From NCBI RefSeq assembly GCF_058153355.1, contig NZ_CM177019.1: a DNA stretch of 64,000 bases; one strand, written 5' to 3'. The position numbers and the translations under genes were made by a program. The notes under the pieces were generated by a model. It had not been told where the DNA came from. It saw only the letters and a program-made list of their open reading frames with translations, and searched no databases. Of this stretch, positions 1-41,053 are shown in pieces; the first letter of the stretch is position 1, and each line of letters begins with the position of its first letter.

Positions 1-717
1 TTGAACATTCATCACGGTGAAATGGTGGCTCTGCTTGGGCCGTCGGGTTCCGGCAAATCCACCCTTTTACGTCATTTAAGCGGTTTGATTACCGGCGATA
101 AATCTGCCGGTAGCCATATCGAGCTGCTGGGCCGCACAGTCCAGCGCGAAGGCCGCCTGGCCCGCGATATCCGCAAAAGCCGCGCCAACACCGGCTACAT
201 CTTCCAACAATTCAACCTGGTGAATCGCCTGAGCGTACTGGAGAACGTGCTGATTGGCGCGCTCGGCAGCACGCCATTCTGGCGCACCTGTTTTAGCTGG
301 TTCACCCGCGAGCAGAAACAGCGCGCGTTACAGGCGCTGACCCGCGTTGGCATGGTGCACTTTGCCCATCAGCGCGTTTCCACCCTCTCCGGCGGGCAAC
401 AGCAGCGTGTGGCGATTGCCCGCGCGCTGATGCAGCAGGCGAAGGTGATTCTGGCCGATGAACCCATCGCCTCGCTGGACCCGGAATCGGCGCGCATCGT
501 GATGGACACCCTGCGCGACATTAACCAGAACGACGGCATTACCGTGGTCGTCACGCTGCATCAGGTGGATTACGCCCTGCGCTATTGCGAACGCATCGTC
601 GCCCTGCGTCAGGGGCACGTCTTTTACGACGGCAGCAGCCAACAGTTTGATAACGAACGTTTTGACCATCTCTACCGCAGCATTAATCGCATCGAAGAGA
701 ACGCGAAAGCTGCCTGA
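1..717 (+). CDS. phnC: Phosphonate ABC transporter ATP-binding subunit PhnC, 5'-truncated by window edge
   Basis: Frame-1 ORF open from position 1; Walker [13 protein letters not shown] signature LSGGQQQR, Walker B ILADEP; phnD follows 24 nt later. The leading M in the track is an internal TTG codon. Confidence 0.9.
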
Positions 718-741
718 CATCCCCATCATTGAGGAAAACGA

Positions 742-1758
742 ATGAACGCTAAGATAATTGCCTCGCTGGCCTTCACCAGCATGTTCAGCCTCAGCACCCT
801 GTTAAGTCCGGCGCACGCCGAAGAGCAGGAAAAGGCGCTGAATTTCGGCATTATTTCAACGGAATCACAGCAAAACCTGAAACCGCAATGGACGCCGTTC
901 TTACAGGATATGGAGAAGAAGCTGGGCGTAAAGGTCAACGCCTTCTTTGCCCCGGACTACGCGGGCATTATCCAGGGGATGCGCTTCAATAAAGTGGATA
1001 TCGCCTGGTACGGCAATCTATCGGCGATGGAAGCGGTGGATCGCGCCAACGGTCAGGTCTTCGCCCAGACGGTCGCGGCGGATGGATCGCCGGGTTACTG
1101 GAGCGTGTTGATCGTCAACAAAGACAGTCCGATCAACAACCTGAACGATCTGCTGGCGAAGCGTAAAGATCTCACCTTTGGCAATGGCGATCCTAACTCC
1201 ACCTCTGGCTTCCTCGTCCCCGGCTACTACGTCTTCGCCAAAAACAATATCTCCGCCAGCGACTTCAAGCGCACCGTCAACGCCGGGCATGAAACCAACG
1301 CGCTGGCCGTCGCCAACAAGCAGGTGGATGTGGCGACCAACAACACCGAGAACCTCGACAAGCTGAAAACCTCCGCACCGGAGAAGCTCAAAGAACTGAA
1401 GGTGATCTGGAAATCGCCGCTGATCCCAGGCGATCCGATCGTCTGGCGCAAAAATCTTTCCGAAACCACCAAAGACAAGATCTACGACTTCTTTATGAAC
1501 TACGGCAAAACGCCGGAAGAGAAAGCGGTGCTGGAGCGCCTGGGCTGGGCCCCGTTCCGCGCCTCCAGCGACCTGCAACTGGTGCCGATTCGCCAGCTCG
1601 CGCTGTTTAAAGAGATGCAGGGCGTGAAAGGCAATAAAGGGCTGAATGAGCAGGACAAGCTGGCAAAAACCAGCGCCATTCAGGCGCAACTGGATGACCT
1701 GGACCGCCTGAACAACGCGTTAAGCGCGATGAGTTCGGTGAGTAAAGCGGTGCAGTAA
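742..1758 (+). CDS. phnD: Periplasmic phosphonate-binding protein PhnD
   Basis: 338-aa ORF with N-terminal signal peptide (…LLSPAHA/EE), GAGGAAAA RBS upstream, operon position after phnC. Confidence 0.92.
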   Translation: MNAKIIASLAFTSMFSLSTLLSPAHAEEQEKALNFGIISTESQQNLKPQWTPFLQDMEKKLGVKVNAFFAPDYAGIIQGMRFNKVDIAWYGNLSAMEAVDRANGQVFAQTVAADGSPGYWSVLIVNKDSPINNLNDLLAKRKDLTFGNGDPNSTSGFLVPGYYVFAKNNISASDFKRTVNAGHETNALAVANKQVDVATNNTENLDKLKTSAPEKLKELKVIWKSPLIPGDPIVWRKNLSETTKDKIYDFFMNYGKTPEEKAVLERLGWAPFRASSDLQLVPIRQLALFKEMQGVKGNKGLNEQDKLAKTSAIQAQLDDLDRLNNALSAMSSVSKAVQ

Positions 1759-1773
1759 TGTGCTCGATCGGTC

Positions 1774-1860
1774 CCCTCTCCCTTGAGGGAGAGGGTTAGG
1801 GTGAGGGGGGAAATACGCACGCTGATGCCCTCACCCCGGCCCTCTCCCACAGGGAGAGGG
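1774..1860. repeat. Three nested GC-rich stem-loops in the phnD-phnE intergenic region
   Basis: CCCTCTCCC-TTGA-GGGAGAGGG (about 1774-1795), GGGTGAGGG…CCCTCACCC (about 1799-1807 with 1828-1836) and CCCTCTCCC-ACA-GGGAGAGGG (about 1840-1860). Confidence 0.75.
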
Positions 1861-1884
1861 AGAAAACATTAAACGGAGCCAAAC

Positions 1885-2664
1885 ATGCAAACCATCACCA
1901 TCGCCCCACCCAAGCGCAGCTGGTTCTCGCTTCTGAGCTGGGCCATTGTTCTCGCCGTGCTGGTCGTCTCGTGGCAGGGCGCGGAAATGGCCCCGCTCAC
2001 GCTGATTAAAGACGGCGGCAACATGGCGACGTTCGCCGCCGACTTCTTCCCGCCCGATTTCAGCCAGTGGCAGGATTACCTCACCGAAATGGCCGTCACG
2101 CTGCAAATCGCCGTCTGGGGCACCGCGCTGGCAGTCGTTCTCTCCATCCCCTTCGGCCTGATGAGCGCCGAAAACCTGGTGCCGTGGTGGGTGTACCAGC
2201 CCGTGCGCCGTCTGATGGACGCCTGCCGCGCCATTAACGAAATGGTCTTCGCCATGCTGTTCGTGGTCGCCGTCGGTCTCGGGCCGTTCGCTGGCGTGCT
2301 GGCGCTGTTTATTCACACCACCGGCGTGCTTTCCAAACTGCTTTCCGAAGCGGTGGAAGCGATTGAACCCGGCCCGGTGGAAGGTATTCGCGCCACTGGT
2401 GCCAACAAGCTCGAAGAGATCCTCTACGGCGTGCTGCCGCAGGTGATGCCGCTGCTGATCTCCTACTCCCTCTATCGCTTCGAATCCAACGTCCGTTCGG
2501 CCACCGTTGTTGGCATGGTCGGCGCTGGCGGGATCGGCGTCACGCTGTGGGAAGCGATTCGCGGTTTCCAGTTCCAGCAAACCTGCGCCCTGATGGTGCT
2601 GATTATCGTCACGGTCAGCCTGCTGGATTTCCTCTCTCAACGGTTGCGTAAGCACTTTATCTGA
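1885..2664 (+). CDS. phnE: Phosphonate ABC transporter permease PhnE (intact reading frame)
   Basis: 259-aa hydrophobic ORF with GGAG RBS, uninterrupted; lies between phnD and phnF. Confidence 0.85.
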
Positions 2665-2684
2665 TAAGCGAGGCATTGATATCT

Positions 2685-3410
2685 ATGCACTTGTCTACAC
2701 ATCCGACCAGCTACCCAACACGCTATCAGGAGATAGCCGCAAAACTTGAGCAGGAGCTTCGTCAACACTACCGCTGCGGCGACTATCTTCCCGCCGAGCA
2801 GCAACTGGCAGCGCGCTTTGAGGTGAATCGCCACACCCTGCGCCGTGCCATCGACCAACTGGTGGAAAAAGGCTGGGTACAGCGCCGTCAGGGCGTCGGC
2901 GTGCTGGTGCTGATGCGCCCGTTCGATTACCCGCTCAACGCTCAGGCGCGTTTTAGCCAGAACCTGCTGGATCAGGGTAGCCATCCCACCAGCGAAAAAC
3001 TGCTGTCCGTGCTGCGCCCGGCCTCCGGTCACGTCGCTGACGCGCTGGGGATAACCGAGGGCGAGAACGTTATCCACCTGCGCACCCTGCGCCGGGTCAA
3101 CGGCGTCGCGCTCTGTTTAATCGACCACTACTTTGCGGACCTCACCCTCTGGCCGACGCTGCAACGCTTCGACAGCGGCTCGCTGCACGATTTTCTGCGT
3201 GAGCAAACGGGGATTGCGCTGCGCCGCAGCCAGACGCGGATCAGCGCCCGCCGCGCCCAGGCCAAAGAGTGCCAGCGTCTTGAAATCCCGAATATGTCGC
3301 CGCTGCTGTGCGTGCGCACCCTTAACCACCGTGACGGTGAAAGCAGCCCGGCGGAGTACTCCGTCAGCCTGACGCGCGCCGACATGATTGAATTCACTAT
3401 GGAGCACTGA
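2685..3410 (+). CDS. phnF: GntR-family transcriptional regulator PhnF
   Basis: Track ORF 2676-3410 trimmed to ATG giving 241 aa; N-terminal HTH region; operon context. Confidence 0.85.
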   Translation: MHLSTHPTSYPTRYQEIAAKLEQELRQHYRCGDYLPAEQQLAARFEVNRHTLRRAIDQLVEKGWVQRRQGVGVLVLMRPFDYPLNAQARFSQNLLDQGSHPTSEKLLSVLRPASGHVADALGITEGENVIHLRTLRRVNGVALCLIDHYFADLTLWPTLQRFDSGSLHDFLREQTGIALRRSQTRISARRAQAKECQRLEIPNMSPLLCVRTLNHRDGESSPAEYSVSLTRADMIEFTMEH

Positions 3411-3863
3411 ATGCACGCAGATACCGCGACCCGCCAGCACTGGATGTCCGTGCTGGCGCACAGCCAACCGGCTGAACTGGCTAACCGCCTTAAAGCGCTA
3501 AACATCACCGCCGACTATGACATTATCCGCGCCGCCGAAACCGGCCTGGTACAGATTCAGGCGCGGATGGGTGGCACCGGCGAACGCTTTTTTGCCGGCG
3601 ACGCCACGCTCACCCGCGCCGCCATACGCCTGACTGACGGCACGCTCGGCTACAGCTGGGTGCTGGGGCGCGACAAACAGCACGCCGAACGCTGCGCGCT
3701 GATTGACGCGCTGATGCAGCAATCTCGCCACTTTCAAAACTTATCAGAAACCCTTATTGCCCCGCTGGACGCTGACCGTATGGCACGCATTGCCGCACGC
3801 CAGGCCGAAGTGAACGCCAGTCGGGTCGACTTCTTTACGATGGTTCGCGGAGACAACGCATGA
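3411..3863 (+). CDS. phnG: C-P lyase core complex subunit PhnG
   Basis: 150-aa ORF; start abuts phnF stop; recognised PhnG sequence. Confidence 0.9.
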
Positions 3864-4444
3864 CCCTGGAAACCGCTTTTATGCTTCCCGTGCAGGATGC
3901 CCAGCACAGTTTTCGTCGCCTGTTAAAGGCCATGAGCGAGCCGGGCGTGATTGTCGCCCTACATCAACTCAAACGCGGCTGGCAGCCGCTGAATATTGCC
4001 TCTACCAGCGTATTGCTGACGCTGGCTGATAACGACACGCCGGTGTGGCTTTCCGCGCCATTAAGTAACGATATCGTCAGCCAGAGCCTGCGTTTTCATA
4101 CCAACGCCCCGCTGGTCAATCAGCCGGAACAGGCGACCTTCGCAGTGACGGATGAGGCGATTGCCAGCGAGCAGCTCAACGCCCTTTCCACCGGCACCGC
4201 CGTTGCGCCGGAAGCCGGTGCGACGTTGATTTTACAGGTCACCAGCCTGAGCGGCGGACGCATGCTGCGCCTCACCGGCGCGGGTATTGCCGAAGAACGG
4301 ATGATCGCCCCGCAACTGCCGGAGTGCATTCTGCACGAACTCACCGAGCGCCCGCACCCGTTCCCGCTCGGCATCGACCTGATCCTGACCTGCGGCGAGC
4401 GCCTGCTGGCTATTCCGCGAACCACTCATGTGGAGGTGTGCTGA
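3860..4444 (+). CDS. phnH: C-P lyase core complex subunit PhnH
   Basis: 194-aa ORF overlapping phnG stop by 4 nt (translational coupling). Confidence 0.9.
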
Positions 4445-5508
4445 TGTACGTTGCCGTGAAAGGGGGCGAGAAGGCGATCGACGCCGCCCACGCCCTGCAA
4501 GAGAGCCGACGCCGGGGCGATACCGATTTGCCTGAACTGAGCGTCGCCCAGATTGAACAGCAGCTTAATCTCGCGGTGGATCGCGTGATGACCGAAGGCG
4601 GCATTGCCGACCGCGAACTGGCCGCACTGGCGCTGAAACAGGCCAGTGGCGATAACGTTGAAGCAATTTTCCTGCTGCGCGCCTACCGCACGACGCTGGC
4701 AAAACTGGCGGTAAGCGAGCCGCTCGACACCACCGGGATGCGTCTCGAACGCCGTATCTCCGCCGTTTATAAAGACATTCCTGGCGGCCAGCTGCTTGGC
4801 CCGACCTACGACTACACCCATCGCCTGCTGGATTTCACCCTGCTGGCGAATGGCGAAGCGCCGACGCTGACCACCGCCGACAGCGAGCAAGCCCCATCGC
4901 CGCACGTTTTCAGCCTGCTGGCGCGTCAGGGGCTGGCGAAGTTTGAAGAGGATAGCGGCGCACAGCCGGATGACATCACCCGTACACCGCCGGTTTACCC
5001 TTGCTCTCGCGCCTCCCGCCTGCAACAGCTCATGCGCGGCGACGAAGGCTACTTGCTGGCGCTGGCCTACTCCACCCAGCGCGGATATGGTCGCAATCAC
5101 CCCTTCGCAGGTGAAATCCGCAGCGGCTATATCGACGTGTCGATTGTGCCAGAAGAGCTGGGATTTTCAGTAAACGTCGGCGAACTGCTGATGACCGAGT
5201 GTGAAATGGTCAACGGTTTTATCGACCCGCCGGATGAGCCGCCGCACTTCACGCGCGGCTACGGGCTGGTGTTCGGCATGAGCGAGCGCAAAGCGATGGC
5301 AATGGCGCTGGTTGACCGTGCGTTGCAGGCTCCGGAGTACGGCGAGCACGCGACAGGCCCGGCGCAGGATGAAGAGTTCGTGCTGGCGCATGCCGACAAC
5401 GTCGAAGCCGCAGGCTTTGTCTCGCACCTCAAACTCCCGCACTACGTCGATTTCCAGGCCGAGCTGGAGCTACTCAAACGTCTGCAACAGGAGCAGAACC
5501 ATGGCTAA
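4444..5508 (+). CDS. phnI: C-P lyase core complex subunit PhnI
   Basis: Track ORF 4324-5508 trimmed to the ATG overlapping the phnH stop ([13 protein letters not shown]…), giving 354 aa. Confidence 0.88.
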   Translation: MYVAVKGGEKAIDAAHALQESRRRGDTDLPELSVAQIEQQLNLAVDRVMTEGGIADRELAALALKQASGDNVEAIFLLRAYRTTLAKLAVSEPLDTTGMRLERRISAVYKDIPGGQLLGPTYDYTHRLLDFTLLANGEAPTLTTADSEQAPSPHVFSLLARQGLAKFEEDSGAQPDDITRTPPVYPCSRASRLQQLMRGDEGYLLALAYSTQRGYGRNHPFAGEIRSGYIDVSIVPEELGFSVNVGELLMTECEMVNGFIDPPDEPPHFTRGYGLVFGMSERKAMAMALVDRALQAPEYGEHATGPAQDEEFVLAHADNVEAAGFVSHLKLPHYVDFQAELELLKRLQQEQNHG

Positions 5509-6346
5509 TCTGAGCGGCTACAACTTTGCCTACCTCGACGAGCAGACCAAACGCATGATCCGCCGCGCCATCTTAAAAGCGGTGGCGATCCCCGGCTATC
5601 AGGTGCCGTTTGGCGGGCGCGAGATGCCGATGCCATACGGCTGGGGAACCGGCGGCATACAGCTTACCGCCAGCGTGATTGGCGAAAGCGACGTGTTGAA
5701 GGTGATTGACCAGGGCGCGGATGACACCACCAACGCCGTATCAATTCGCAACTTTTTCAAGCGCGTGACCGGGGTAAACACCACTGAACGTACGGATGAT
5801 GCGACGCTTATCCAGACGCGCCACCGCATCCCCGAAACGCCGCTGACCGAAGATCAGATCATTATTTTCCAGGTGCCCATCCCCGAACCGCTGCGCTTTA
5901 TCGAGCCGCGCGAAACGGAGACCCGCACTATGCACGCGCTGGAGGAGTACGGCGTGATGCAGGTGAAACTGTATGAAGATATCGCCCGCTTCGGTCATAT
6001 CGCCACCACCTACGCCTATCCGGTGAAGGTGAACGGACGCTACGTAATGGACCCATCGCCGATCCCGAAATTTGATAACCCGAAAATGGACATGATGCCC
6101 GCCCTGCAACTGTTCGGCGCGGGGCGCGAAAAGCGTATTTATGCGGTGCCGCCGTTTACCCGCGTGGAAAGCCTCGATTTCGACGATCATCCGTTCACCG
6201 TTCAGCAGTGGGATGAACCCTGCGCGATTTGCGGATCAACCCACAGCTATCTTGATGAAGTGGTGCTGGATGACGCCGGAAACCGCATGTTTGTCTGCTC
6301 CGATACCGATTATTGCCGCCAACAGAGCGAGGCGAAAAGCCAATGA
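5501..6346 (+). CDS. phnJ: C-P lyase catalytic subunit PhnJ (radical SAM-dependent)
   Basis: Track ORF trimmed to MANLSGYNFAYLDEQ… (281 aa); C-terminal Cys cluster CAICGSTHSYLDE…CSDTDYC; overlaps phnI by 8 nt. Confidence 0.9.
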   Translation: MANLSGYNFAYLDEQTKRMIRRAILKAVAIPGYQVPFGGREMPMPYGWGTGGIQLTASVIGESDVLKVIDQGADDTTNAVSIRNFFKRVTGVNTTERTDDATLIQTRHRIPETPLTEDQIIIFQVPIPEPLRFIEPRETETRTMHALEEYGVMQVKLYEDIARFGHIATTYAYPVKVNGRYVMDPSPIPKFDNPKMDMMPALQLFGAGREKRIYAVPPFTRVESLDFDDHPFTVQQWDEPCAICGSTHSYLDEVVLDDAGNRMFVCSDTDYCRQQSEAKSQ

Positions 6347-7101
6347 ATCAACCGTTACTTTCGGTCAATAACCTGACCCACCTCTACGCGCCGGGCAAAG
6401 GCTTTAGCGATGTCTCTTTTGATTTATGGCCGGGGGAAGTGCTGGGCATCGTCGGGGAATCCGGCTCCGGGAAGACCACGCTGCTGAAATCAATCTCCGC
6501 GCGCCTGACGCCGCAGCAGGGGGAGATTCGCTATGAAAACCGCTCCCTCTATGGCATGAGCGAAGCCGACCGCCGCCGTTTGCTGCGCACCGAATGGGGC
6601 GTGGTGCATCAGCATCCGCTCGACGGCCTGCGCCGTCAGGTGTCAGCAGGCGGCAATATCGGCGAACGGCTGATGGCGACCGGGGCGCGTCATTACGGCG
6701 ACATTCGCGCCACCGCGCAGAAGTGGCTGGAAGAGGTGGAGATTCCCGCCAACCGTATCGACGATCTGCCGACCACTTTTTCCGGCGGCATGCAGCAGCG
6801 TTTGCAGATTGCCCGCAACCTGGTGACGCATCCGAAGCTGGTGTTTATGGACGAGCCAACCGGCGGGCTGGATGTGTCAGTGCAGGCACGCCTGCTCGAC
6901 CTGCTGCGCGGTCTGGTGGTGGAGCTGAACCTGGCAGTGGTGATTGTCACCCATGATCTGGGTGTCGCACGCCTGTTGGCAGACCGTTTGCTGGTGATGA
7001 AACAGGGGCAAGTGGTGGAGAGTGGCTTAACCGACCGCGTGCTCGACGACCCGCATCACCCGTATACCCAGTTGCTGGTGTCATCGGTTTTGCAGAATTG
7101 A
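6343..7101 (+). CDS. phnK: ABC-type ATPase PhnK (C-P lyase accessory)
   Basis: Trimmed to MNQPLLSVNNL… (252 aa); Walker A GESGSGKTT, signature FSGGMQQR, Walker B VFMDEP. Confidence 0.9.
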   Translation: MNQPLLSVNNLTHLYAPGKGFSDVSFDLWPGEVLGIVGESGSGKTTLLKSISARLTPQQGEIRYENRSLYGMSEADRRRLLRTEWGVVHQHPLDGLRRQVSAGGNIGERLMATGARHYGDIRATAQKWLEEVEIPANRIDDLPTTFSGGMQQRLQIARNLVTHPKLVFMDEPTGGLDVSVQARLLDLLRGLVVELNLAVVIVTHDLGVARLLADRLLVMKQGQVVESGLTDRVLDDPHHPYTQLLVSSVLQN

Positions 7102-7104
7102 GCC

Positions 7105-7250
7105 GGTGCCGGATGCGGCGTAAACGCCTTATCCGGCTTTTCAGGCCGCAACGCCTGATGGCGCTTCGCTTATCAGGCCTACAAAACCATCGTAATACGT
7201 TGATATTGATTCATTTGTAGGCCGGATAAGGCGCAGCCGCCATCCGGCAA
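7105..7250. repeat. REP palindromic units between phnK and phnL
   Basis: GCCGGATGCGGCGTAAACGCCTTATCCGGC, GCCTGATGGCGCTTCGCTTATCAGGCCTAC and TAGGCCGGATAAGGCGCAGCCGCCATCCGGC in the 167-bp phnK-phnL gap. Confidence 0.85.
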
Positions 7251-7268
7251 AAACACGAAGAGGCCAAA

Positions 7269-7949
7269 ATGATCCGCGTCGAAAACGTCAGTAAAACCTT
7301 CATCCTGCACCAGCAAAACGGCGTGCGCCTGCCCGTCTTACAACGCGCCTCGCTCACCGTCAACGCGGGCGAATGCGTGGTGCTCCACGGTCACTCCGGC
7401 AGCGGCAAATCAACTCTGCTACGCTCGCTGTACGCCAACTATCTGCCCGACGAAGGGCAAATTCAGATCAAACATGGTGACGAGTGGGTAGACCTGGTCA
7501 CCGCGCCAGCGCGCAAAGTGGTGGAAATCCGCAAAACCACCGTCGGCTGGGTGAGCCAGTTTCTGCGGGTCATCCCGCGTATTTCAGCGCTGGAAGTGGT
7601 AATGCAGCCGCTGCTCGATACCGGCGTTTCGCGTGATGCCTGCGCCGCTAAAGCCGCGCGTCTGCTCACCCGCCTGAACGTGCCGGAACGTCTGTGGCAC
7701 CTGGCGCCATCGACCTTCTCCGGCGGCGAACAGCAGCGCGTCAACATCGCGCGCGGCTTTATCGTCGATTACCCCATTCTGCTGCTCGACGAACCTACTG
7801 CCTCGCTGGACGCCAAAAACAGCGCCGCGGTGGTGGAACTGATCCGCGAAGCTAAAACCCGCGGCGCAGCCATCGTCGGCATCTTCCACGACGAAGCCGT
7901 ACGCAATGACGTCGCCGACCGCCTCCACCCAATGGGAGCCTCTGCATGA
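7269..7949 (+). CDS. phnL: ABC-type ATPase PhnL (C-P lyase accessory)
   Basis: 226-aa ORF; Walker [10 protein letters not shown], signature FSGGEQQR, Walker B LLLDEP; preceded by a REP cluster. Confidence 0.9.
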
Positions 7950-9082
7950 TTATCAATAACGTCAAACTGGTGCTGGAAAACGAAGTGGTACACGGTTCGC
8001 TGGAGGTGCAGGACGGCGAAATTCGCGCCTTTGCCGAAAGCCAGAGCCGCCTGCCAGAGGCGATGGACGGCGAAGGCGGCTGGCTGCTGCCGGGGCTGAT
8101 TGAGCTGCATACCGACAACCTCGATAAATTCTTCACTCCGCGCCCAAAAGTGGACTGGCCTGCCCACTCGGCGATGAGCAGCCACGATGCGCTGATGGTG
8201 GCGAGCGGCATCACCACCGTGCTGGACGCCGTGGCGATTGGCGACGTGCGCGACGGCGGCGATCGGCTGGAGAATCTGGAAAAGATGATCAACGCCATCG
8301 AAGAGACGCAGAAACGCGGCGTCAACCGCGCCGAGCACCGCCTGCACCTGCGCTGCGAACTGCCGCATCACACTACGCTGCCGCTGTTTGAAAAACTGGT
8401 GCAGCGCGAGCCGGTCACGCTGGTGTCGCTAATGGACCACTCACCGGGCCAGCGCCAGTTCGCCAATCGCGAGAAATATCGCGAATATTATCAGGGCAAA
8501 TACTCGCTCACCGATGCGCAGATGCAGCAGTATGAAGGGGAACAACTGGCGCTTGCCGCACGCTGGTCGCAGCCGAATCGCGAAACCATCGCCGCAATGT
8601 GCCGCGCGCGACAAATTGCCCTCGCCAGCCACGATGACGCCACGCACGCGCACGTTGCCGAATCCCACCAGCTTGGCAGCGTAATCGCCGAATTTCCCAC
8701 CACGTTCGAAGCGGCGGAAGCTTCGCGCAAGCATGGCATGAATGTATTGATGGGCGCGCCGAATATTGTGCGCGGCGGTTCGCACTCCGGCAACGTGGCG
8801 GCCAGTGAACTGGCACAGCTTGGTCTGCTGGATATCCTCTCTTCCGACTACTACCCCGCCAGCCTGCTCGATGCGGCATTTCGCGTCGCCGATGACGAGA
8901 GCAACCGCTTTACGCTGCCGCAGGCGGTGAAGCTGGTGACTAAAAATCCGGCCCAGGCGCTTAATCTTCAGGATCGCGGGGTGATTGGCGAGGGCAAACG
9001 CGCCGACCTGGTGCTGGCGCATCGCAAGGGCAACCACATTCATATCGATCACGTCTGGCGTCAGGGTAAAAGGGTGTTCTGA
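7946..9082 (+). CDS. phnM: Amidohydrolase-family phosphonate pathway protein PhnM
   Basis: 378-aa ORF overlapping phnL stop by 4 nt; recognised PhnM sequence. Confidence 0.9.
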
Positions 9083-9639
9083 TGACGGGAAAACTGATTT
9101 GGTTAATGGGGGCCTCTGGCTCCGGAAAAGACAGTCTGTTGACGGAACTCCGCCAGCGGGAACAAACTCAGCTACTGGTAGCGCATCGCTACATCACGCG
9201 CGCCGCCAGCGCCGGAAGTGAAAACCATATCGCCCTGAGCGAGCAGGAGTTTTTTACCCGCGCGGGGCAGAACCTTCTGGCCTTAAGCTGGCACGCCAAC
9301 GGCCTGTATTATGGCATCGGCGTCGAGATTGACCTCTGGCTGCACGCTGGATTTGACGTGGTGGTCAACGGCTCACGCGCCCATCTACCGCAGGCGCGGG
9401 CGCGCTATCAATCGGCGCTGCTGCCCATCTGTTTACAGGTTTCGCCAGAGATCCTGCGCCAGCGCCTGGAAAACCGTGGCCGTGAAAACGCCAGTGAAAT
9501 TAACGCCCGCCTGGCGCGCGCCGCCCGCTATACTCCTCAGGATTGTCTTACGCTCAATAATGACGGCAGCCTGCGCCAGTCGGTCGACAAGCTGCTGACG
9601 CTGATTCATCAGAAGGAGAAACACCATGCCTGCTTGTGA
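9082..9639 (+). CDS. phnN: Ribose 1,5-bisphosphate phosphokinase PhnN
   Basis: 185-aa ORF with P-loop GASGSGKDS; start overlaps phnM stop. Confidence 0.9.
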
Positions 9640-10060
9640 GCTTCGCCCGGCCACGCAGTACGACACCGACGCAGTTTACGCGCTGATTTGTGAGCTAAAA
9701 CAGGCGGAGTTTGACCACCACGCGTTTCGCGTGGGGTTTAACGCCAATCTGCGCGACCCGAACATGCGCTACCATCTGGCGCTGCTGGATGGCGAAGTTG
9801 TCGGCATGATCGGCCTGCATTTGCAGTTTCATCTGCATCATGTCAACTGGATCGGCGAAATTCAGGAACTGGTGGTGATGCCGCAGGCGCGCGGTCTGAA
9901 CGTCGGCAGTAAATTACTGGCATGGGCCGAAGAAGAAGCCCGCCAGGCCGGGGCCGAAATGACCGAGCTTTCCACCAACGTCAAGCGCCACGACGCGCAC
10001 CGTTTCTATCTGCGCGAAGGCTACGAGCAGAGCCACTTCCGCTTCACCAAGGCGCTGTAA
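9626..10060 (+). CDS. phnO: GNAT-family aminoalkylphosphonate N-acetyltransferase PhnO
   Basis: 144-aa ORF overlapping phnN by 14 nt; recognised PhnO sequence. Confidence 0.88.
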
Positions 10061-10061
10061 C

Positions 10062-10820
10062 ATGAGCCTGACCCTCACACTTACTGGCACTGGCGGCGCA
10101 CAGGGCGTTCCCGCATGGGGCTGTGAGTGTGCGGCCTGCGCCAGAGCGCAGCGCTCACCGCAGTATCGCCGCCAGCCATGCAGCGGCGTCGTGAAGTTTA
10201 ACGAGGCGATCACCCTGATCGACGCCGGGCTGCACGATCTCGCCGATCGCTGGTCGCCCGGATCGTTCCAGCAGTTTTTGCTGACGCACTACCATATGGA
10301 TCACGTGCAGGGGCTGTTTCCGCTGCGCTGGGGCGTGGGCGATTCTATCCCGGTCTACGGCCCGCCGGATGAACAGGGCTGCGACGATCTGTTTAGACAT
10401 CCGGGCCTGCTTGATTTCAGCCACACGGTGGAGCCATTTGTGATGTTTGATTTGCAGGGATTACAGGTCACGCCGCTGCCGCTCAACCATTCGAAACTCA
10501 CTTTCGGCTATCTACTGGAAACGGCACATAGCCGGGTGGCGTGGCTGTCTGACACCGCAGGCCTGCCGGAAAAAACGGTGAAATTTTTACGCAATAATCA
10601 GCCGCAGGTGATGGTGATTGATTGCAGCCACCCACCGCGCGCGAATTCGCCACGCAATCACTGTGATTTAAACACCGTGCTGGCGCTGAATGAAGTTATC
10701 CGCTCGCCGCGCGTGGTTCTGACACATATCAGCCATCAGCTTGATGTGTGGCTGATGGAGAACGTACTGCCGTCAGGGTTTGAGGCGGGGTTTGATGGGA
10801 TGGAGATTGGGGTGGAGTAA
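10062..10820 (+). CDS. phnP: Metallo-beta-lactamase-fold phosphodiesterase PhnP
   Basis: 252-aa ORF with HxHxDH metal motif ([10 protein letters not shown]); last gene of the operon. Confidence 0.9.
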
Positions 10821-10854: not shown

Positions 10855-11184
10855 TCACCGCCCATACTCATCTTCCATTCTCCGCTCTTCATCTTCTAGC
10901 TGCCGACGCTCCTGATCCAGCTGGCGCTGGCGATCGTCCAGCTGCCTGCGGCGATCTTCAAACTGGCGGCGGCGATCGTCATATTGTCTGCGCCGATCGT
11001 CGTTCACTTCACGCTGCCAGCCGTCGTCGCGCGAATCTTCATAGTCTCGCCCACGGTCAGGGTTATAAGCATCGTTAATCGCCTGCTGAATATTGCCAAT
11101 GGTGTCGTCGATAATATCGGCCTGGGCCGGAACGGTGGACAGCGTGAGCAGGGTGAATAAAAGAAATAGCGGAAAACGTTTCAT
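10855..11184 (-). CDS. yjdP: Small secreted low-complexity protein YjdP
   Basis: 109-aa ORF with signal peptide (…TVPAQA/D) and Asp/Arg/Gln-rich repeats (DDRRRQYDDRRRQFEDRRRQLDDRQRQL); position next to phnP as in K-12. Confidence 0.75.
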   Translation of the reverse strand: MKRFPLFLLFTLLTLSTVPAQADIIDDTIGNIQQAINDAYNPDRGRDYEDSRDDGWQREVNDDRRRQYDDRRRQFEDRRRQLDDRQRQLDQERRQLEDEERRMEDEYGR

Positions 11185-21984: not shown

Positions 21985-21986
21985 TG

Positions 21987-22250
21987 TAGGCCTGATAAGA
22001 CGCGGTAAGCGTCGCATCAGATATTAATGTCGGATGCGGCGTAAACGCCTTATCCGACCTACAAAATCACCCTAAATCAAGCTATTGCGCAGTCTGGCGT
22101 AGGCCTGATAAGACGCGGCAAGCGTCGCATCAGGCATTGATGTCGGATGCGGCGTAAACGCCTTATCCGACCTACAAAATCACGCTAAATCAGGCTATTG
22201 CGCAGTCTGGCGTAGGCCTGATAAGACGCGGCAAGCGTCGCATCAGGCAT
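21987..22250. repeat. BIME/REP array: five REP palindromic units in alternating orientation, about 113-bp period
   Basis: Repeated units TAGGCCTGATAAGACGCGGCAAGCGTCGCATCAGGC and GTCGGATGCGGCGTAAACGCCTTATCCGACCTAC, with near-identical 113-bp repeats starting near 21987, 22100 and 22213. Confidence 0.85.
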
Positions 22251-32678: not shown

Positions 32679-32795
32679 TGCCGGATGCGATCCGGGCAAC
32701 AAGTCGGAAACGATTTGTAGGCCTGATAAGACGCGACAGCGTCGCATCAGGCATTGATTGCCGGATGCGGCGTATAACGCCTTATCCGGCCTACA
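32679..32795. repeat. REP palindromic units between acs and yjcH
   Basis: TAGGCCTGATAAGACGCGACAGCGTCGCATCAGGC and GCCGGATGCGGCGTATAACGCCTTATCCGGCCTAC. Confidence 0.8.
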
Positions 32796-35020: not shown

Positions 35021-36313
35021 ATGCGCTATAATGGTTTAAATAATATGTTTTTCCCTCTTTGCCTGATTAACGATAACCACCCTGTCACAAGTCCATCACA
35101 TACAAAGAAAACAAAATCAGATAATTATAGCAAACATCATAAAGACACGTTAATTGACAATAAAGCCCTCTCTCTTTTCAAAATGGATGATCATGAAAAA
35201 GTGATAGGCTTGATTCAGAAAATGAAAAGAACTTATGATACTTTACCATCAGGAAAAATCACTAAAGAAACGGACAGGAAAATTCATAAATATTTTATAG
35301 ATATAGCTTTATACGCAAGTAATAAATATGACGATAGAATTACGAGAAGAGTTTACCTTAATAAAGATAAGGAAGTATCAATTAAGGTAGTGTATTTTAT
35401 AAATAATGTCACTGTCCATAATAATACTATCGAAATCCCACAGACAGTAAATGGTGGTTACGATTTTTCATACCTTAGCCTGAAAGGTATCAGGATTAAA
35501 GATGAAGATTTATCCAATTCGGATTTTGCAGGTTGCAGACTACAAAATGCTATTTTCCAGGGCTGTAATATGTATCAAACGAATTTTAATTTTGCCATAA
35601 TGGAAAAAATAATTTTTGATAATTGTATTCTCGATGACTCAAATTTCGCTCAGATAAAAATGACTGACGGAACTCTAAATGCATGCTCCGCTATGCATGT
35701 TGAATTCTTCAATGCAACAATGATTAGAGCTAAAATTAAAAATACCTTCCTTGACTATTCAAATTTTTATATGGCGTACATGGCTGAGGTGAATCTTTAT
35801 AAAGTAATAGCGCCATATGTTAATTTATTTAGAGCCGACCTTAGTTTCTCTAAACTCGATTTAATTAACTTTGAACATGCTAATCTTTCTCGCGTCAACC
35901 TGAACAAAGCAACCCTCCAGAATATAAACTTAATTAATAGCAAACTCTTTTTTACGCGGCTGACAAATACGTTCCTCGAAATGGTTATATGTACCGATTC
36001 TAATATGGCTAATGCTAATTTTAATAATGCCAATTTAAGCAATTGCCATTTCAACTGTTCTATTTTAACAAAAGCCTGGATGTTTAATACCCGTTTCTAT
36101 CGGGTTAATTTCGATGAGGCTATCGTCCAGGGAATGGGCATATCCATTCTCCGTGGGGAGGATAATATTCCCATTAATAGTGATATCCTGATAACACTAC
36201 AGCAACTCTTTGAAGAGGATTGTGCCACTCATACTGGCATGTCACAAACTGAGCATAATATTCAGGAAGTGTCTATGAATACCACTGAAGATACTATGCA
36301 ATACGCAGATTGA
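35021..36313 (+). CDS. yjcF: Pentapeptide-repeat protein YjcF
   Basis: 430-aa ORF in strongly AT-rich DNA; C-terminal two-thirds made of tandem pentapeptide-like repeats (…NFNFA…, …ANLSRVNLNKATLQNINLINSKL…, ANANFNNANLSNCHFN…). Confidence 0.8.
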   Translation: MRYNGLNNMFFPLCLINDNHPVTSPSHTKKTKSDNYSKHHKDTLIDNKALSLFKMDDHEKVIGLIQKMKRTYDTLPSGKITKETDRKIHKYFIDIALYASNKYDDRITRRVYLNKDKEVSIKVVYFINNVTVHNNTIEIPQTVNGGYDFSYLSLKGIRIKDEDLSNSDFAGCRLQNAIFQGCNMYQTNFNFAIMEKIIFDNCILDDSNFAQIKMTDGTLNACSAMHVEFFNATMIRAKIKNTFLDYSNFYMAYMAEVNLYKVIAPYVNLFRADLSFSKLDLINFEHANLSRVNLNKATLQNINLINSKLFFTRLTNTFLEMVICTDSNMANANFNNANLSNCHFNCSILTKAWMFNTRFYRVNFDEAIVQGMGISILRGEDNIPINSDILITLQQLFEEDCATHTGMSQTEHNIQEVSMNTTEDTMQYAD

Positions 36314-36402
36314 GATTAAGCCGAAGAATAGCCAATGAATTGACTTTAAAAGAGAGATACTCACGGACTTCTGACTTATTTATTTTAGAATCATGAATGT
36401 TA

Positions 36403-36460
36403 GCCCGAGGTAATCTGAAAAAGGTGCAAAAGATTGCACCTTTTTCAGATTACCTCGGGC
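36403..36460. terminator. 58-nt perfect palindrome between convergent yjcF and yjcE; likely bidirectional terminator
   Basis: GCCCGAGGTAATCTGAAAAAGGTGCAA-AAGA-TTGCACCTTTTTCAGATTACCTCGGGC: 27-bp arms with no mismatch, 20 nt from the yjcE stop. Confidence 0.6.
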
Positions 36461-36480
36461 CTGGTTACGTCGCTTTCGGC

Positions 36481-38130
36481 TTACTGATTTTCCTCAATCA
36501 ACAACGCTTCAAGCAAATCGAGATCGTGCAATAATTTTTGCAGCGTTTCGTTACTGATCTCCCGCGTGGCGCGCAGGTGGTAAAGTTCAGCTCGTTCAGA
36601 ACGCAATGCTGCCAGACGGAAGCGACGCTCCAGATTCTCTTCCTGCACGGAACTTTCAACGTCGTTACGTCCATCGGCGCGACGACGCAGGTTACCAATG
36701 ACGCGAGAACTGACCTCCGTGAGCAGCTGGTTATCGATATTCTCTTCGGTATCCGCCGCCAGACGCTCCTCCATTTTCTGGATTGCCACAATCGCCACTT
36801 CTGCCGTTGCCGCTCGCGCAATACGCTCCTCTTTCAACTGCTGCGAATGGTCTGCGACTTCAATGTGTTGCAGCAGAATGGGCAACATCACCACGCCGAC
36901 AAACAGCGAGAAGAGAATGACGCCAGCCGCCAGGAACACCAACTCATAGCGCGCCGGGAAGACGTTGCCATCCGGCAAGAGCAGCGGGATAGAGAGCACA
37001 CCGGCTAGTGTGATCGCCCCACGCACCCCGGCAAAAGACGCAATCAGGATTTCTCGTGTGGTCCACGAACCAAACTCCATCGGCTTCTTCTTCAGAAAAC
37101 GGTTGCTGAACTTTTTCATCGTCCACAGCCAGCCAAAACGGACCAGCATCAGCGCCGCATAAATCAGAATGATATCGGTAAACAGCATCCAGATTTCGAC
37201 GTTAGGGTCGATTTCTGCCGCCATCAGCGACGTCTCCAGAATACCCGGCAACTGCAGACCTAACAGCAGGAATACCATGCCGTTGAAGACAAATTCCAGC
37301 ATCGCCCAGGTGCTGTTTGCGCGCAGGCGCATCGCCAGCGGCGCACGGCGCATTACACCGGAGCGGGTGATGGTCATCCCAGCGGCAACCGCAGCAAGAA
37401 TACCGGAAACGCCAATATGTTCGGCAATCAGATAAGAAGCGAATGGCAGCAGGAACAGCAGTACAATCTGCGTCGCGGGTTCATCACCGCCCCAGCGGCT
37501 GAGGAATCGCAGCGAACGACCATACAGCCAGCTCACCACAAAACCGGCGAGAATACCGCCAATGGCCACTTTCATAAATTCCACCGTTGCACCGCCGACG
37601 GTGAAGATCATCGTCCCCATCGCCACTGCCACAGCAAACTTTAATGACACCAGGCCGGAGGCGTCATTCATCAACGCTTCGCCCTGCAAAATACCCATGA
37701 TTTTTTTCGGGATGCGCCCTTCGCCAACAATACCGGAAAGCGCCACAGCATCGGTCGGAGAAAGCACCGCCGCCAGCGCAAAGGCGGGAATCAGCGGAAT
37801 GCCCGGCACCACCCAGTAAATAAGGAAGCCAATGCCAACCACGGTGACCACCACCAGCGCCAGCGCGAGGCCGAAAATCTCCCGACCATGTTCGAGAAAT
37901 TCACGGGTCGGCGTTTTCCAGCCATCTGCGAACAGCAACGGCGGGATAAACAAGACTAAAAAGAGTTCAGGATCAAACTCCACATGCAAACCAAACGTCG
38001 GCCACGCCAGTAGCGCACCGATGGCGATTTGCATAAGCGGAAGCGGGATCTGAAAGGGCATGACACGAGTGACCACCCCGGACAGCGAGACCACGAGGGT
38101 CATTATCAGTATGGTGAAGAAGATTTCCAT
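36481..38130 (-). CDS. yjcE: CPA1-family Na+(K+)/H+ exchanger YjcE
   Basis: 549-aa ORF with hydrophobic N-terminal transporter domain and charged coiled-coil-like C-terminal tail. Confidence 0.88.
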   Translation of the reverse strand: MEIFFTILIMTLVVSLSGVVTRVMPFQIPLPLMQIAIGALLAWPTFGLHVEFDPELFLVLFIPPLLFADGWKTPTREFLEHGREIFGLALALVVVTVVGIGFLIYWVVPGIPLIPAFALAAVLSPTDAVALSGIVGEGRIPKKIMGILQGEALMNDASGLVSLKFAVAVAMGTMIFTVGGATVEFMKVAIGGILAGFVVSWLYGRSLRFLSRWGGDEPATQIVLLFLLPFASYLIAEHIGVSGILAAVAAGMTITRSGVMRRAPLAMRLRANSTWAMLEFVFNGMVFLLLGLQLPGILETSLMAAEIDPNVEIWMLFTDIILIYAALMLVRFGWLWTMKKFSNRFLKKKPMEFGSWTTREILIASFAGVRGAITLAGVLSIPLLLPDGNVFPARYELVFLAAGVILFSLFVGVVMLPILLQHIEVADHSQQLKEERIARAATAEVAIVAIQKMEERLAADTEENIDNQLLTEVSSRVIGNLRRRADGRNDVESSVQEENLERRFRLAALRSERAELYHLRATREISNETLQKLLHDLDLLEALLIEENQ

Positions 38131-38281
38131 GCGTTCCCTGTTTGCGATGTTTTTTTATGATCTGAGAAAGGCGTTATGCCTGAATTCTCATTTTTTCAGA
38201 ATATCGCAAAAGCTCACACAATGTGCGGAGAAAATAAAAACGGGCAGCCATTGCCACCCGTTTTCAGAATCTTATTAAAGC

Positions 38282-39631
38282 TTAGATAGCCCAGCCGCCC
38301 GCATAGAAGGTCACCAGCGCCACGGCAATGACGACCGTACCGATGTTCAACTTGCGCCATTCTCCGGAAACCAGACGACCAATCACCAGAGTCGCGAAGC
38401 CGATCATAATACCCGTTACGATGTTACAGGTCAGTACGATGAATACTGCTGTTACCAGACCCGCCATCGCATCAACAAAATCAGCAAAGTCAATTTTCGC
38501 CACATTACTCAGCATCAGCAGGCCAACGTACATCAGCGCCGGAGCCGTTGCGTAACCCGGAACGAGGTAAGAGAGTGGAGAGAGGAACAGAATCAGCAGG
38601 AACAACACGCCAACGGTGATAGCCGTCAGACCGGTTTTTCCGCCCGCCGCTGTACCCGCCGCAGACTCGATGTATACCGCTGCCGGAGCTGCCCCCACCA
38701 GACCAGAGAAAACACTGCTCATGGAGTCGGTGGTCAGTGCTTTCCCGCCGTCGATAATTTGCCCGTCTTTATCCAGCAGGTTTGCCTGGCCCGCGACGGC
38801 CCGGATGGTTCCGGTGGCATCGAAAACAGCAGTCATCACCAGTGCCAGCACGCTCGGCAGAACCACAGGGTTCAGCGCGCCCATAATGTCCAGGCTGCCA
38901 ATCAGTGAATTGCCGTTTTCATCGCTCAATGAAGGCATGGCGAAAACGCCAGAGAAGTGGACGTTAGGATCGAAGATCAAACCGACAATTGAGATACCGA
39001 TAATGGTCAGCAGAATGCCACCGGGGACTTTCAGTTTTTCCAGGCCGATGATCACAGCCAGACCTACCAGTGACATAATCACCGGGAAGGTCGCGAAATC
39101 ACCCAGCGCAACAGGCAGACCATCAAGCGGGTTTTTAATCACCAGACCGACACCATTAGCAGCAATCAGCAGCAGGAACAGACCGATACCGATCCCCGTG
39201 CCGTGCGCCACACCGTGCGGCAAGTTGCGCAAAATCCAGCTACGAATACCCGTGGCAGAAATTACCGTAAACAGTACACCCATCAGGAACACGGCACCCA
39301 GCGCGACAGGTACGCTAATATGTTGCCCCAGCACCAGACTGAATGCGGTAAACGCCGTCAGGGAGATGGCGCAACCAATCGCCAACGGCAGATTAGCCCA
39401 CAGACCCATCACGATAGAACCGAGTCCGGCAACCAGACAGGTCGCAACGAAAACTGCCGCAGGCGGGAAGCCTGCTTTACCCAACATGCCTGGAACGACG
39501 ATAACCGAGTAGACCATCGCCAGAAATGTTGTTAACCCGGCAACCACTTCCTGACGGACAGAGCTTCCACGTTGTGAAATTTTAAACCAGGCGTCGAGTG
39601 AACCGCCGGTACGCGCTGATGGCGTAGACAT
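38282..39631 (-). CDS. ghxP: NCS2-family guanine/hypoxanthine permease GhxP (YjcD)
   Basis: 449-aa polytopic membrane ORF recognised as YjcD/GhxP. Confidence 0.88.
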
Positions 39632-40044
39632 AAGAAAACATCCCCTGAGAGTTTAATTTTCGTCAAGATGCGTGGCGGACATTCCCCTGCCAGCGAAACG
39701 TTATCTTCCTGTTCCAGGTTTGCGACAATTTGGTGCGTCGCAAAAAAGCAAACGTTTAGCTCCGCGCATACAAAACGGGTGGTAAAAAAAAGCAAACGAT
39801 TATCCGGCGATCATAGCGGCTTTTTCAACCGAAGTTTGCTGCTTTTTTCTCTTTTATGGTCTTGACGATGAAAAACCAGGCAATTGATGCGCAAACGTTA
39901 TCGTCGATGCGCAAGATTGCAGCGTTATCGAGCCGCATACCGTTCAGGATTGCGATAAAAAATCGTCTGAGATGACAAAAATATTGCGGCTAAAAAGCGT
40001 CCTTTTACACTGGCGAAGAAACGCCGGTGACATACAATTAAAGC

Positions 40045-40186
40045 ATCAACACCAACCGGAACCTCCACCACGTGCTCGAATGAGGTGTGTTGACGTCGGG
40101 GGAAACCCTCCTGTGTACCAGCGGGATAGAGAGAAAGACAAAGACCGGAAAACAAACTAAAGCGCCCTTGTGGCGCTTTAGTTTTG
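40045..40186 (+). ncRNA. ryjA: Small RNA RyjA (SraL), converging on the soxR 3' end
   Basis: Known K-12 sRNA location between ghxP and soxR on the strand opposite soxR; a TACAAT -10-like element near 40033-40038; ends at a hairpin TAAAGCGCC-CTTGT-GGCGCTTTA plus GTTTTGTT that overlaps the soxR stop. 5' end is approximate. Confidence 0.45.
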
Positions 40187-40642
40187 TTCATCTTCCAGCA
40201 AGCGTGCGCCTGTGCCTTCTTCTCCTAAGCAGTCGCCCGGGTTACGCAATGGGCAATCACTGCGCGAAAGGCAGCCGCAACCAATACATCCGTCCAGTTC
40301 GTCACGCAGTGCCACTAAGGTATGAATACGCCGATCCAACTCTTCTCGCCATTGGGACGAAAGCTGTTTCCACTCTTTCGCACTTAATGTATGCCCTTCG
40401 GGCAACACGCCAAACGCTTCACGAATGGTCGCCAGCGGAATGCCAATACGCTGAGCAATTTTGATGATTGCGACATATCGCAACACATCACGCTTATATC
40501 GCCGCTGATTACCGCTGTTACGAATACTGGTAATCAACCCTTTGCTTTCATAGAAATGCAGCGCCGATACCGCCACACCGCTGCGTTTTGCCACTTCGCC
40601 GGGGGTTAGCAGCGCTTTAATGCGGGGTAATTTCTTTTCCAT
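40178..40642 (-). CDS. soxR: Redox-sensing MerR-family regulator SoxR ([2Fe-2S])
   Basis: 154-aa ORF with C-terminal [12 protein letters not shown] iron-sulfur cluster motif. Confidence 0.95.
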
Positions 40643-40653
40643 AAATCGCTTTA

Positions 40654-40671
40654 CCTCAAGTTAACTTGAGG
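40654..40671. promoter_or_regulatory. SoxR operator in the soxS promoter
   Basis: Perfect 18-bp palindrome CCTCAAGTTAACTTGAGG in the 85-bp divergent soxR-soxS intergenic region. Confidence 0.85.
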
Positions 40672-40727
40672 AATTATACTCCCCAACAGATGAATTAACG
40701 AACTGAACACTGAAAAGAGGCAGATTT

Positions 40728-41051
40728 ATGTCCCATCAGAAAATTATTCAGGATCTTATCGCATGGATTGACGAGCATATTGACCAGCCGCTTAACATTG
40801 ATGTCGTCGCAAAAAAATCAGGCTATTCAAAGTGGTACTTACAGCGGATGTTCCGCACGGTGACGCATCAGACACTTGGTGATTACATTCGCCAACGCCG
40901 CCTGTTACTGGCCGCCGTTGAGTTGCGCACCACCGAGCGTCCGATTTTTGATATCGCAATGGACCTTGGTTATGTCTCGCAGCAGACTTTTTCCCGCGTT
41001 TTCCGTCGGCAGTTTGATCGCACTCCCAGCGATTATCGCCACCGCCTGTAG
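40728..41051 (+). CDS. soxS: AraC/XylS-family superoxide-response activator SoxS
   Basis: 107-aa ORF divergent from soxR; recognised SoxS sequence. Confidence 0.95.
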   Translation: MSHQKIIQDLIAWIDEHIDQPLNIDVVAKKSGYSKWYLQRMFRTVTHQTLGDYIRQRRLLLAAVELRTTERPIFDIAMDLGYVSQQTFSRVFRRQFDRTPSDYRHRL

Positions 41052-41053
41052 TT

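Follow-up and report, generated by a model that had tools for sequence, protein, structure and literature searches.

Where along the long phn message of Escherichia coli can ribosomes enter independently, and where does translation of one gene depend on that of the gene before it? The locus that raises this question occupies positions 1-10820 of a 64,000-nucleotide (nt) stretch of contig NZ_CM177019.1 (assembly GCF_058153355.1), hereafter the window, in which phnC(partial)DEFGHIJKLMNOP lie in canonical order on a single strand (+). The locus is the classical Pho-regulated 14-gene phn operon of E. coli, which encodes C-P (carbon-phosphorus) lyase. An initial annotation of this sequence held that near-continuous gene overlaps point to stoichiometric co-translation of the core complex, with two structured gaps, phnD-phnE and phnK-phnL, as the likely points of differential regulation. 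We consider it likely that a single long mRNA is split by its junctions into translational modules, with D/E and K/L as the exceptions (junctions are named here by the letters of the flanking genes).

In this layout, free ribosomes would load at a few open sites (phnD, phnE, phnG and phnL). The starts that follow within phnG-H-I-J-K and phnL-M-N-O-P each overlap or abut the upstream stop, and their Shine-Dalgarno sequences are buried in upstream coding sequence, so that translation of a downstream gene would rely chiefly on a ribosome completing the gene before it, through termination-reinitiation or through ribosome-driven unfolding of the start region. Coupling of this kind would keep the distal genes of a low-abundance, ~11-kb transcript (~10.8 kb in the window) translated, fix the synthesis ratios of neighbors and leave no ribosome-free RNA.

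Gene junctions and start codons

Gene coordinates agree among the open reading frame (ORF) list, the raw sequence, our own translation check and an E. coli locus of 97% identity as annotated in RefSeq (Table 1). The seven overlaps given in the initial annotation, from G/H to J/K and from L/M to N/O, are exact to the nucleotide, and the two sizeable gaps were also correctly placed. To these are added the four junctions that it did not give: F/G, O/P, C/D and E/F. Same-strand neighbors that overlap or touch within a few nt thus comprise seven overlaps and two abutments. Overlaps make up 7/13 junctions, compared with 73/326 operonic E. coli pairs (PMC5318159, Burkhardt 2017; binomial P = 0.013), and 8/13 junctions fall within -8 to +6, compared with 24% of unidirectional E. 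coli pairs (PMC10666635, Huber 2023; P = 0.004). This enrichment is not extraordinary and is within the range of long operons.

Since each overlap depends on the start codon chosen, we asked how well the annotated starts are marked. Twelve of the 13 form Shine-Dalgarno/anti-Shine-Dalgarno duplexes of -5.5 to -10.6 kcal/mol, compared with a mean of -2.1 over all operon positions. In Shine-Dalgarno strength, the annotated starts were matched by none of 20,000 random 13-position sets. The strongest belongs to phnI (GGAGG, -10.6 kcal/mol) and the weakest to phnP (-3.2 kcal/mol); that of phnO (AAGGAG) reaches -8.8 kcal/mol. All seven overlapped starts lie within the -5.5 to -10.6 range, with their initiation signals inside the upstream ORF. 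At each of these seven junctions the annotated ATG beats every in-frame candidate in Shine-Dalgarno strength. In addition, tblastn alignments to orthologues from 72-80 other species start at query residue 1-4, and the phnI start is aligned exactly in 76/76 orthologous loci.

The overlaps could be artefacts of start-codon choice, and other starts that remove them had been named as what would overturn the initial annotation. Examined in silico, this is unlikely: no rival in-frame start has an equal Shine-Dalgarno sequence, downstream candidates cut into conserved N termini, and both the Shine-Dalgarno sites and the orthologue N termini back the annotated starts. The encoded proteins are also of the expected kind. 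PhnJ database matches carry PF06007, and PhnI is ~99% identical to the sequence of PDB 7Z15 (3-4 substitutions in 354 aa), with PhnI entries in the PDB having the same 354-residue length of sequence. Three PhnJ database proteins (P0001, P0003 and P0019) are 398-442 aa long and 89-100% identical, and carry extra PhnH, ABC-ATPase or PhnI domains; they resemble fusions, or gene-calling errors, that span overlapping junctions, as would result from a frameshift of one base.

Table 1 Features of the phn locus, in window coordinates (ABC, ATP-binding cassette; REP, repetitive extragenic palindromic; IHF, integration host factor).
Feature	Position	Strand	Description
phnC, 3′ part only	1-717	+	phosphonate ABC transporter ATPase; gene cut by window start
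phnD	742-1758	+	periplasmic phosphonate-binding protein; C/D gap +24 nt
D/E gap	1759-1884	+	126 nt
phnE	1885-2664	+	permease, intact, 259 aa
phnF	2685-3410	+	GntR-type regulator; E/F gap +20 nt
phnG	3411-3863	+	C-P lyase core subunit; F/G abut, 0 nt (TGAATG)
phnH	3860-4444	+	overlap with phnG 4 nt (ATGA); Shine-Dalgarno GGAG within phnG
phnI	4444-5508	+	overlap with phnH 1 nt (TGATG); Shine-Dalgarno GGAGG
phnJ	5501-6346	+	radical-SAM C-P bond-cleaving subunit; overlap with phnI 8 nt
phnK	6343-7101	+	ABC ATPase bound to PhnJ; overlap with phnJ 4 nt
K/L gap	7102-7268	+	167 nt
REP1 hairpin	7108-7137		6 nt past phnK stop
REP2 tail	7169-7182	+	
putative IHF site	7193-7205		exact consensus TAATACGTTGATA (reverse-complement form YAANNNNTTGATW), between inverted REP2 and REP3
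REP3 tail	7217-7230	-	
phnL	7269-7949	+	second ABC ATPase, PhnK-binding; K/L gap +167 nt
phnM	7946-9082	+	RPnTP diphosphatase; overlap with phnL 4 nt
phnN	9082-9639	+	ribose 1,5-bisphosphokinase; overlap with phnM 1 nt
phnO	9626-10060	+	aminoalkylphosphonate N-acetyltransferase; overlap with phnN 14 nt; Shine-Dalgarno AAGGAG
phnP	10062-10820	+	phosphodiesterase; O/P gap +1 nt

Junction types across genera and predicted ribosome entry

The operon was compared with 80 phnJ loci from other species of Enterobacterales, Vibrio, Pseudomonas, Halomonas and the alpha- and beta-proteobacteria. Gene models came from tblastn and a start-choice heuristic, which reproduced the RefSeq starts in three E. coli loci, and junction values were collapsed to one per genus (~49 genera). 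The core junctions overlap in 62-87% of genera: G/H in 29/47, H/I in 31/47 (13 more abut), I/J in 41/47 and J/K in 42/49. Farther along the operon, L/M overlaps in 35 of 44 genera (80%), M/N in 22 of 43 (51%) and N/O in 12 of 13 (92%). K/L stands apart, with overlap in just 2/49 genera and a median of +14 nt (Fisher p = 1.6e-20 versus the other six G-to-N junctions), and D/E overlaps in 0/31 genera, exceeding 30 nt in 30 of them. In the distant, independently annotated operons of Thermus thermophilus, the haloarchaeon Natronorubrum, Paracoccus and Methylibium, the G/H, I/J, J/K and L/M junctions all overlap, K/L measures +11, 0, +4 and +11, respectively, and D/E gaps of +85 and +63 occur among the four.

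These values bear on a reading in which nothing is tuned for expression: the overlaps would be neutral by-products of compaction and stop-codon drift, from which ATGA and TGATG arise easily, and the gaps harmless landing spots for selfish REP and BoxC repeats. Overlap length does drift between taxa (G/H -1/-4, I/J -4/-8, L/M -4/-7/-11, N/O -8/-11/-14), and -4 and -1 are the commonest overlap distances in all prokaryotes (PMC10666635). However, the type of each junction, as judged from the compared sequences, is conserved junction by junction across phyla, the archaeon included, for which compaction drift alone is insufficient. A good Shine-Dalgarno sequence is also retained at every overlapped start, and the accessibility of the ribosome-binding sites follows junction type, as described below. 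We therefore regard a wholly neutral origin as very improbable.

To compare the accessibility of the starts, we predicted in silico the energy needed to unfold positions -18 to +10 about each start (opening energy). In the window, the sites of phnD (6.5), phnE (1.1, the most accessible in the operon), phnG (7.4) and phnL (6.0 kcal/mol) are predicted to be open, whereas those of phnH (15.8), phnI (12.5), phnK (13.1) and phnN (13.1 kcal/mol) are predicted to be closed; the coding background is 13.6 kcal/mol. The same division recurs over 45 genera, with medians of 6.8-8.6 kcal/mol for D, E, G and L versus 10.5-11.9 for H, I, J, K and N (pooled medians 7.7 versus 11.0 kcal/mol, p = 4e-14). This split by junction is what real coupling predicts. 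It suggests phnD, phnE, phnG and phnL as ribosome entry points, phnL being a new one within the operon, and the closed sites as dependent starts within the G-to-K chain and, less clearly, from L to P.

From this agreement between overlap and predicted closure we infer coupling, and a coupled G-to-K chain is plausible. Short overlaps couple, with coupling gone by ~+20 nt (PMC10666635). The chain that begins at phnG ends at phnK and so coincides with the PhnGHIJK complex, which was purified and solved from a phnGHIJK plasmid (PMC9947105). In K-12, a single phnC-P transcript is made under phosphate starvation, its coverage declining along the operon, and a phnGHIJK sub-transcript appears under another condition (PMC3734233; the supplementary tables give transcript boundaries). 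Phosphate-starvation induction itself is taken from the K-12 literature (PMC3734233), the promoter lying upstream of the window, which begins inside phnC.

The stoichiometric version put forward in the initial annotation shares much of this evidence. An almost unbroken run of tight junctions extends from phnF to phnP and is conserved well outside E. coli, the starts of phnH, phnI, phnK and phnN are predicted closed, and the G-to-K chain matches the purified and solved complex (PMC9947105). The C-P lyase core is an equimolar Phn(GHIJ)2, and short overlaps are 4.5-fold enriched among those E. coli pairs whose products form heteromeric complexes (PMC10666635). Unsupported or overstated are the restriction to the core and the enforcement of equal synthesis. 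Enzymes outside the complex (L/M, M/N, N/O, N/P) overlap about equally often, and overlap as a tracer of complex membership is ruled out by the genus counts for L/M, M/N and N/O, set against those of the core junctions. Moreover, ribosome profiling in E. coli shows that translation ratios vary about as much in overlapping pairs as in other pairs (PMC5318159). PhnK and PhnL, which bind 1:1 in Phn(GHIJKL)2 (PMC9947105), are nevertheless the separated pair; they are equimolar there, and the K/L gap lies inside the complex and not at its edge. As for the gaps as points of differential regulation, both are strongly structured, and a REP located between tandem genes increases expression of the upstream relative to the downstream gene (bioRxiv 10.64898/2026.03.23.713779). 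The proposal fares well at D/E, structured in 22/26 genera, but poorly at K/L, where the REP cluster is lineage-specific, being missing from most genera and variable among E. coli strains. The initial interpretation is thus supported in part, but taken as a whole its stoichiometric version appears unlikely.

Two structured gaps of different history

The hairpin module reported between phnD and phnE is real. Two BoxC/PIT/TMECO elements, one of type A (~1774-1808, +) and one of type B (~1827-1860, -), form an inverted pair in the D/E gap and fold as one ~40-bp hairpin (-70.2 kcal/mol, z -6.9 versus shuffles). The type A arm has exactly the sequence of published TMECO no. 2; type B is the reverse complement of TMECO no. 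1 (PMC4666352). The pair follows the BoxC motif, CCCTCTCCC-loop-GGGAGAGGG-(TTA or CCG)-GGGTGAGGG, of a dispersed element often found in inverted tandem pairs. Per E. coli genome it occurs at 5 places (median), with a further copy between mrcB and hrpB. The hairpin as a unique regulatory element is thus ruled out, the pair being dispersed and REPs occupying the same place in K-12.

A scan of both gaps found no T-run terminators or sigma-70 promoter-like sites in either D/E or K/L. The top terminator-like match of the scan lies instead within phnH (4201-4235, coding strand), where an 11-bp GC-rich stem is followed by TTGATTTTAC; it may have arisen by chance or may act as an internal attenuator.

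What persists at D/E is structure. The gap is structured (z <= -2) in 22/26 genera, compared with 1/16 for C/D and 2/11 for E/F, which served as control gaps, and the structure is present even in genera where no known repeat family fills the gap. Because the slot is structured so widely though the repeat family differs, a strong hairpin after the binding-protein gene is a conserved property, which interchangeable sequences fill. Among E. coli lineages, the inverted BoxC/TMECO pair is found in the window, EC42405 and 2020CK-00188, and two inverted REPs in K-12 (L002 9726-9845); across the lineages compared, the hairpin is kept while its sequence is swapped. Such exchange of BoxC and REP between lineages, together with the status of BoxC loci as rearrangement hotspots (PMC4666352), would suit harmless landing spots, but that idea does not account for structure retained in genera without a known repeat, nor for its near absence from C/D and E/F. 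By analogy with malEFG, we infer an effect of the hairpin on expression. Whether formed by a BoxC pair as here, a REP pair as in K-12 or a unique hairpin as elsewhere, it would most likely serve as a barrier to 3′ exonucleases or as an attenuator, raising PhnD relative to downstream products, so that D/E is a credible point of differential expression.

The REP cluster reported between phnK and phnL is likewise real and consists of three REPs, members of a family of dispersed, imperfect extragenic palindromes ~35 nt long; two have exact CTTATC(C/A)GGCCTAC tails and one is tail-less. The gap folds at -76.1 kcal/mol (z -5.5 versus shuffles). REP2 and REP3 are inverted about an exact IHF consensus, an arrangement that, at the sequence level, corresponds to the BIME-1/RIP subtype. 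Matches to the IHF consensus number 10 in the window, where 2 are expected by chance. Nine REP matches lie elsewhere in the window against a chance expectation of 0.5, and the K/L REP query has matches at 3 places (median) in each E. coli genome. Additional REP clusters of the window lie at 21986-22225, 32717-32794 and 63349-63412, with an array of five REPs at ~22.0-22.2 kb.

In Salmonella, Citrobacter and Leclercia the K/L junction is only 9 nt long, TAAGAGGCCAACATG. The window retains GAGGCCAAAATG directly before phnL, past the REP cluster, and with it the ancestral phnL Shine-Dalgarno sequence GAGGCCAAA at 7260-7268. The retained sequence and the short junction of relatives indicate that the REPs entered downstream of the phnK stop and upstream of the ancestral Shine-Dalgarno site. 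Gap length and REP content also vary within the species, from 167 nt with three REPs in the window to 110 nt with two in K-12 and 179 nt in EC42405, and among complete E. coli genomes none other matches the window's K/L gap over 80% of its length. The cluster as a conserved feature is therefore ruled out; judged by these alignments, it is a lineage-specific insertion and not a conserved regulatory device.

Why this junction should offer a spacer may be explained by the protein that precedes it. The last ten residues of PhnK (QLLVSSVLQx; here …QLLVSSVLQN) are conserved at 0.65-0.94 per position up to the stop, compared with 0.18-0.45 at the C-terminal ends of PhnG, H, I, J, L and N. Unlike PhnL, PhnK possesses a conserved C-terminal domain (PMC9947105). 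Codons for S-V-L-Q are unable to spell a Shine-Dalgarno sequence, which would place the site just past the stop and give the ancestral gap of +8 to +14 nt. We propose that this coding constraint, and not regulatory need, created the spacer: a conserved PhnK tail would leave no room for a Shine-Dalgarno sequence, the site would stand after the stop, and REPs would later have colonized the gap. K/L would then be the only insertable spacer between phnG and phnP, and hence the REP landing site both in Escherichia and in certain other enterics.

In E. coli, a step in expression at K/L is plausible as a secondary effect, by analogy with other REPs between tandem genes, which generally favor the upstream gene and raise the upstream/downstream ratio (bioRxiv 10.64898/2026.03.23.713779). 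A further possibility, which we hold to be rather doubtful, is that phnK/phnL is a deeply conserved uncoupling point (Proteobacteria, Thermus and the haloarchaeon) at which PhnL is set independently of PhnGHIJK, and that REP and BoxC insertions at K/L and D/E in E. coli lead to heritable strain differences in PhnK:PhnL and PhnD:PhnE. If true, the balance between single-PhnK and K2L2 enzyme states could shift and phosphonate-utilization capacity could be altered. Liang, Rudd and Deutscher reportedly found in 2015 that REPs within 15 nt of a stop codon stall ribosomes and trigger tmRNA tagging.

Several points weigh against the division of the phn message into translational modules. The phnJ, phnM and phnO sites have intermediate opening energies and are not closed, and all opening energies are purely in silico predictions. 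The comparative loci are phylogenetically non-independent, and their starts come from our own heuristic, partly anchored on E. coli N termini. The PhnM tail is also conserved, yet phnM overlaps phnN by 1 nt, so that the tail-constraint argument hinges on which residues are conserved. BoxC/PIT elements are reported to be without promoter or terminator activity and without effect on RNA polymerase (cited in PMC4666352). Finally, we found no paper with a direct test of coupling in phn in the searchable open-access literature. With these points taken into account, we still consider the modular layout likely. The two gaps within it differ in history, D/E being a conserved hairpin slot and K/L an opportunistic REP landing site.

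Relation to known systems

The closest comparison is the phn operon of E. coli K-12/B (b4106-b4092), which has the same 14 genes in the same order. In K-12 MG1655 the tight junctions are identical (F/G 0, G/H -4, H/I -1, I/J -8, J/K -4, L/M -4, M/N -1, N/O -14 and O/P +1), and the observation that began this work therefore restates a known architecture. Ever since the first sequencing of the operon, databases have contained the phn sequence with its overlapping cistrons. The overlap architecture is thus already known and ordinary, and the comparative details added here (conservation of the spacer at K/L and of the hairpin slot at D/E, and the turnover of repeats) are minor refinements. Their use lies in a map that separates probably coupled phn junctions from those with independent entry, which helps in re-engineering C-P lyase (glyphosate, methylphosphonate) and in reading polar mutations.

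The window and K-12 differ in what surrounds these junctions. At D/E, a BoxC pair stands here in place of the two REPs of K-12, and the putative IHF site of the longer K/L gap accompanies three REPs here, compared with two REPs in K-12. The 259-aa phnE ORF (1885-2664) is intact, whereas phnE is a pseudogene in K-12, and the phosphonate transporter of this strain is probably functional. Over window positions 1-10820, phn shares 92-97% nucleotide identity with K-12 and 90-95% with the majority of 5,400 E. coli genomes, compared with 95-99% identity to nearly all of them for the soxRS region (window 36000-42000). From this difference, the phn haplotype of the strain is a minority, divergent and apparently mosaic one. 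All phn junction distances are unchanged despite the divergent haplotype. Beyond the operon, a half-BoxC-like fragment, GGGTGAGGGG, comes after the phnP stop, at a site occupied in K-12 by a complete BoxC element, and a yjdP-like ORF with DDRRRQL-type repeats lies directly downstream of phnP (10855-11184, - strand).

The overlapped junctions resemble the termination-reinitiation (TeRe) pairs described in native E. coli genes (Huber et al. 2019/2023; downstream genes such as hyfI and menH). Both have same-strand overlaps of -1, -4 or -8 and a Shine-Dalgarno sequence in the last ~15 nt of the upstream gene, and TeRe pairs are enriched for complex subunits (PMC10666635). The phn operon departs from that set in three respects: N/O, at -14, falls outside the -8 to +10 range used there, the products of half of the overlapped phn pairs are enzymes that do not interact, and coupling in phn is a prediction from sequence.

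Each gap has its own counterpart. The K/L cluster recalls REP325, which lies in yjdM-yjdN, the operon adjoining phn, and is also a REP cluster between tandem genes; there, upstream mRNA is stabilized and the downstream gene attenuated (bioRxiv 10.64898/2026.03.23.713779). REP325 is outside the window, however, and has a different REP composition. The D/E hairpin is comparable to malEFG-type decay, in which a stable hairpin stands 3′ of a periplasmic binding-protein gene and before an ABC permease gene in a polycistronic mRNA (PMC5927463). By sequence and predicted fold, such a hairpin directly follows phnD, which under the malEFG-type model would be the gene needed in excess. The hairpin is formed by a BoxC pair here and by REPs in malEFG, and phnD is second in its operon, after the ATPase gene phnC.

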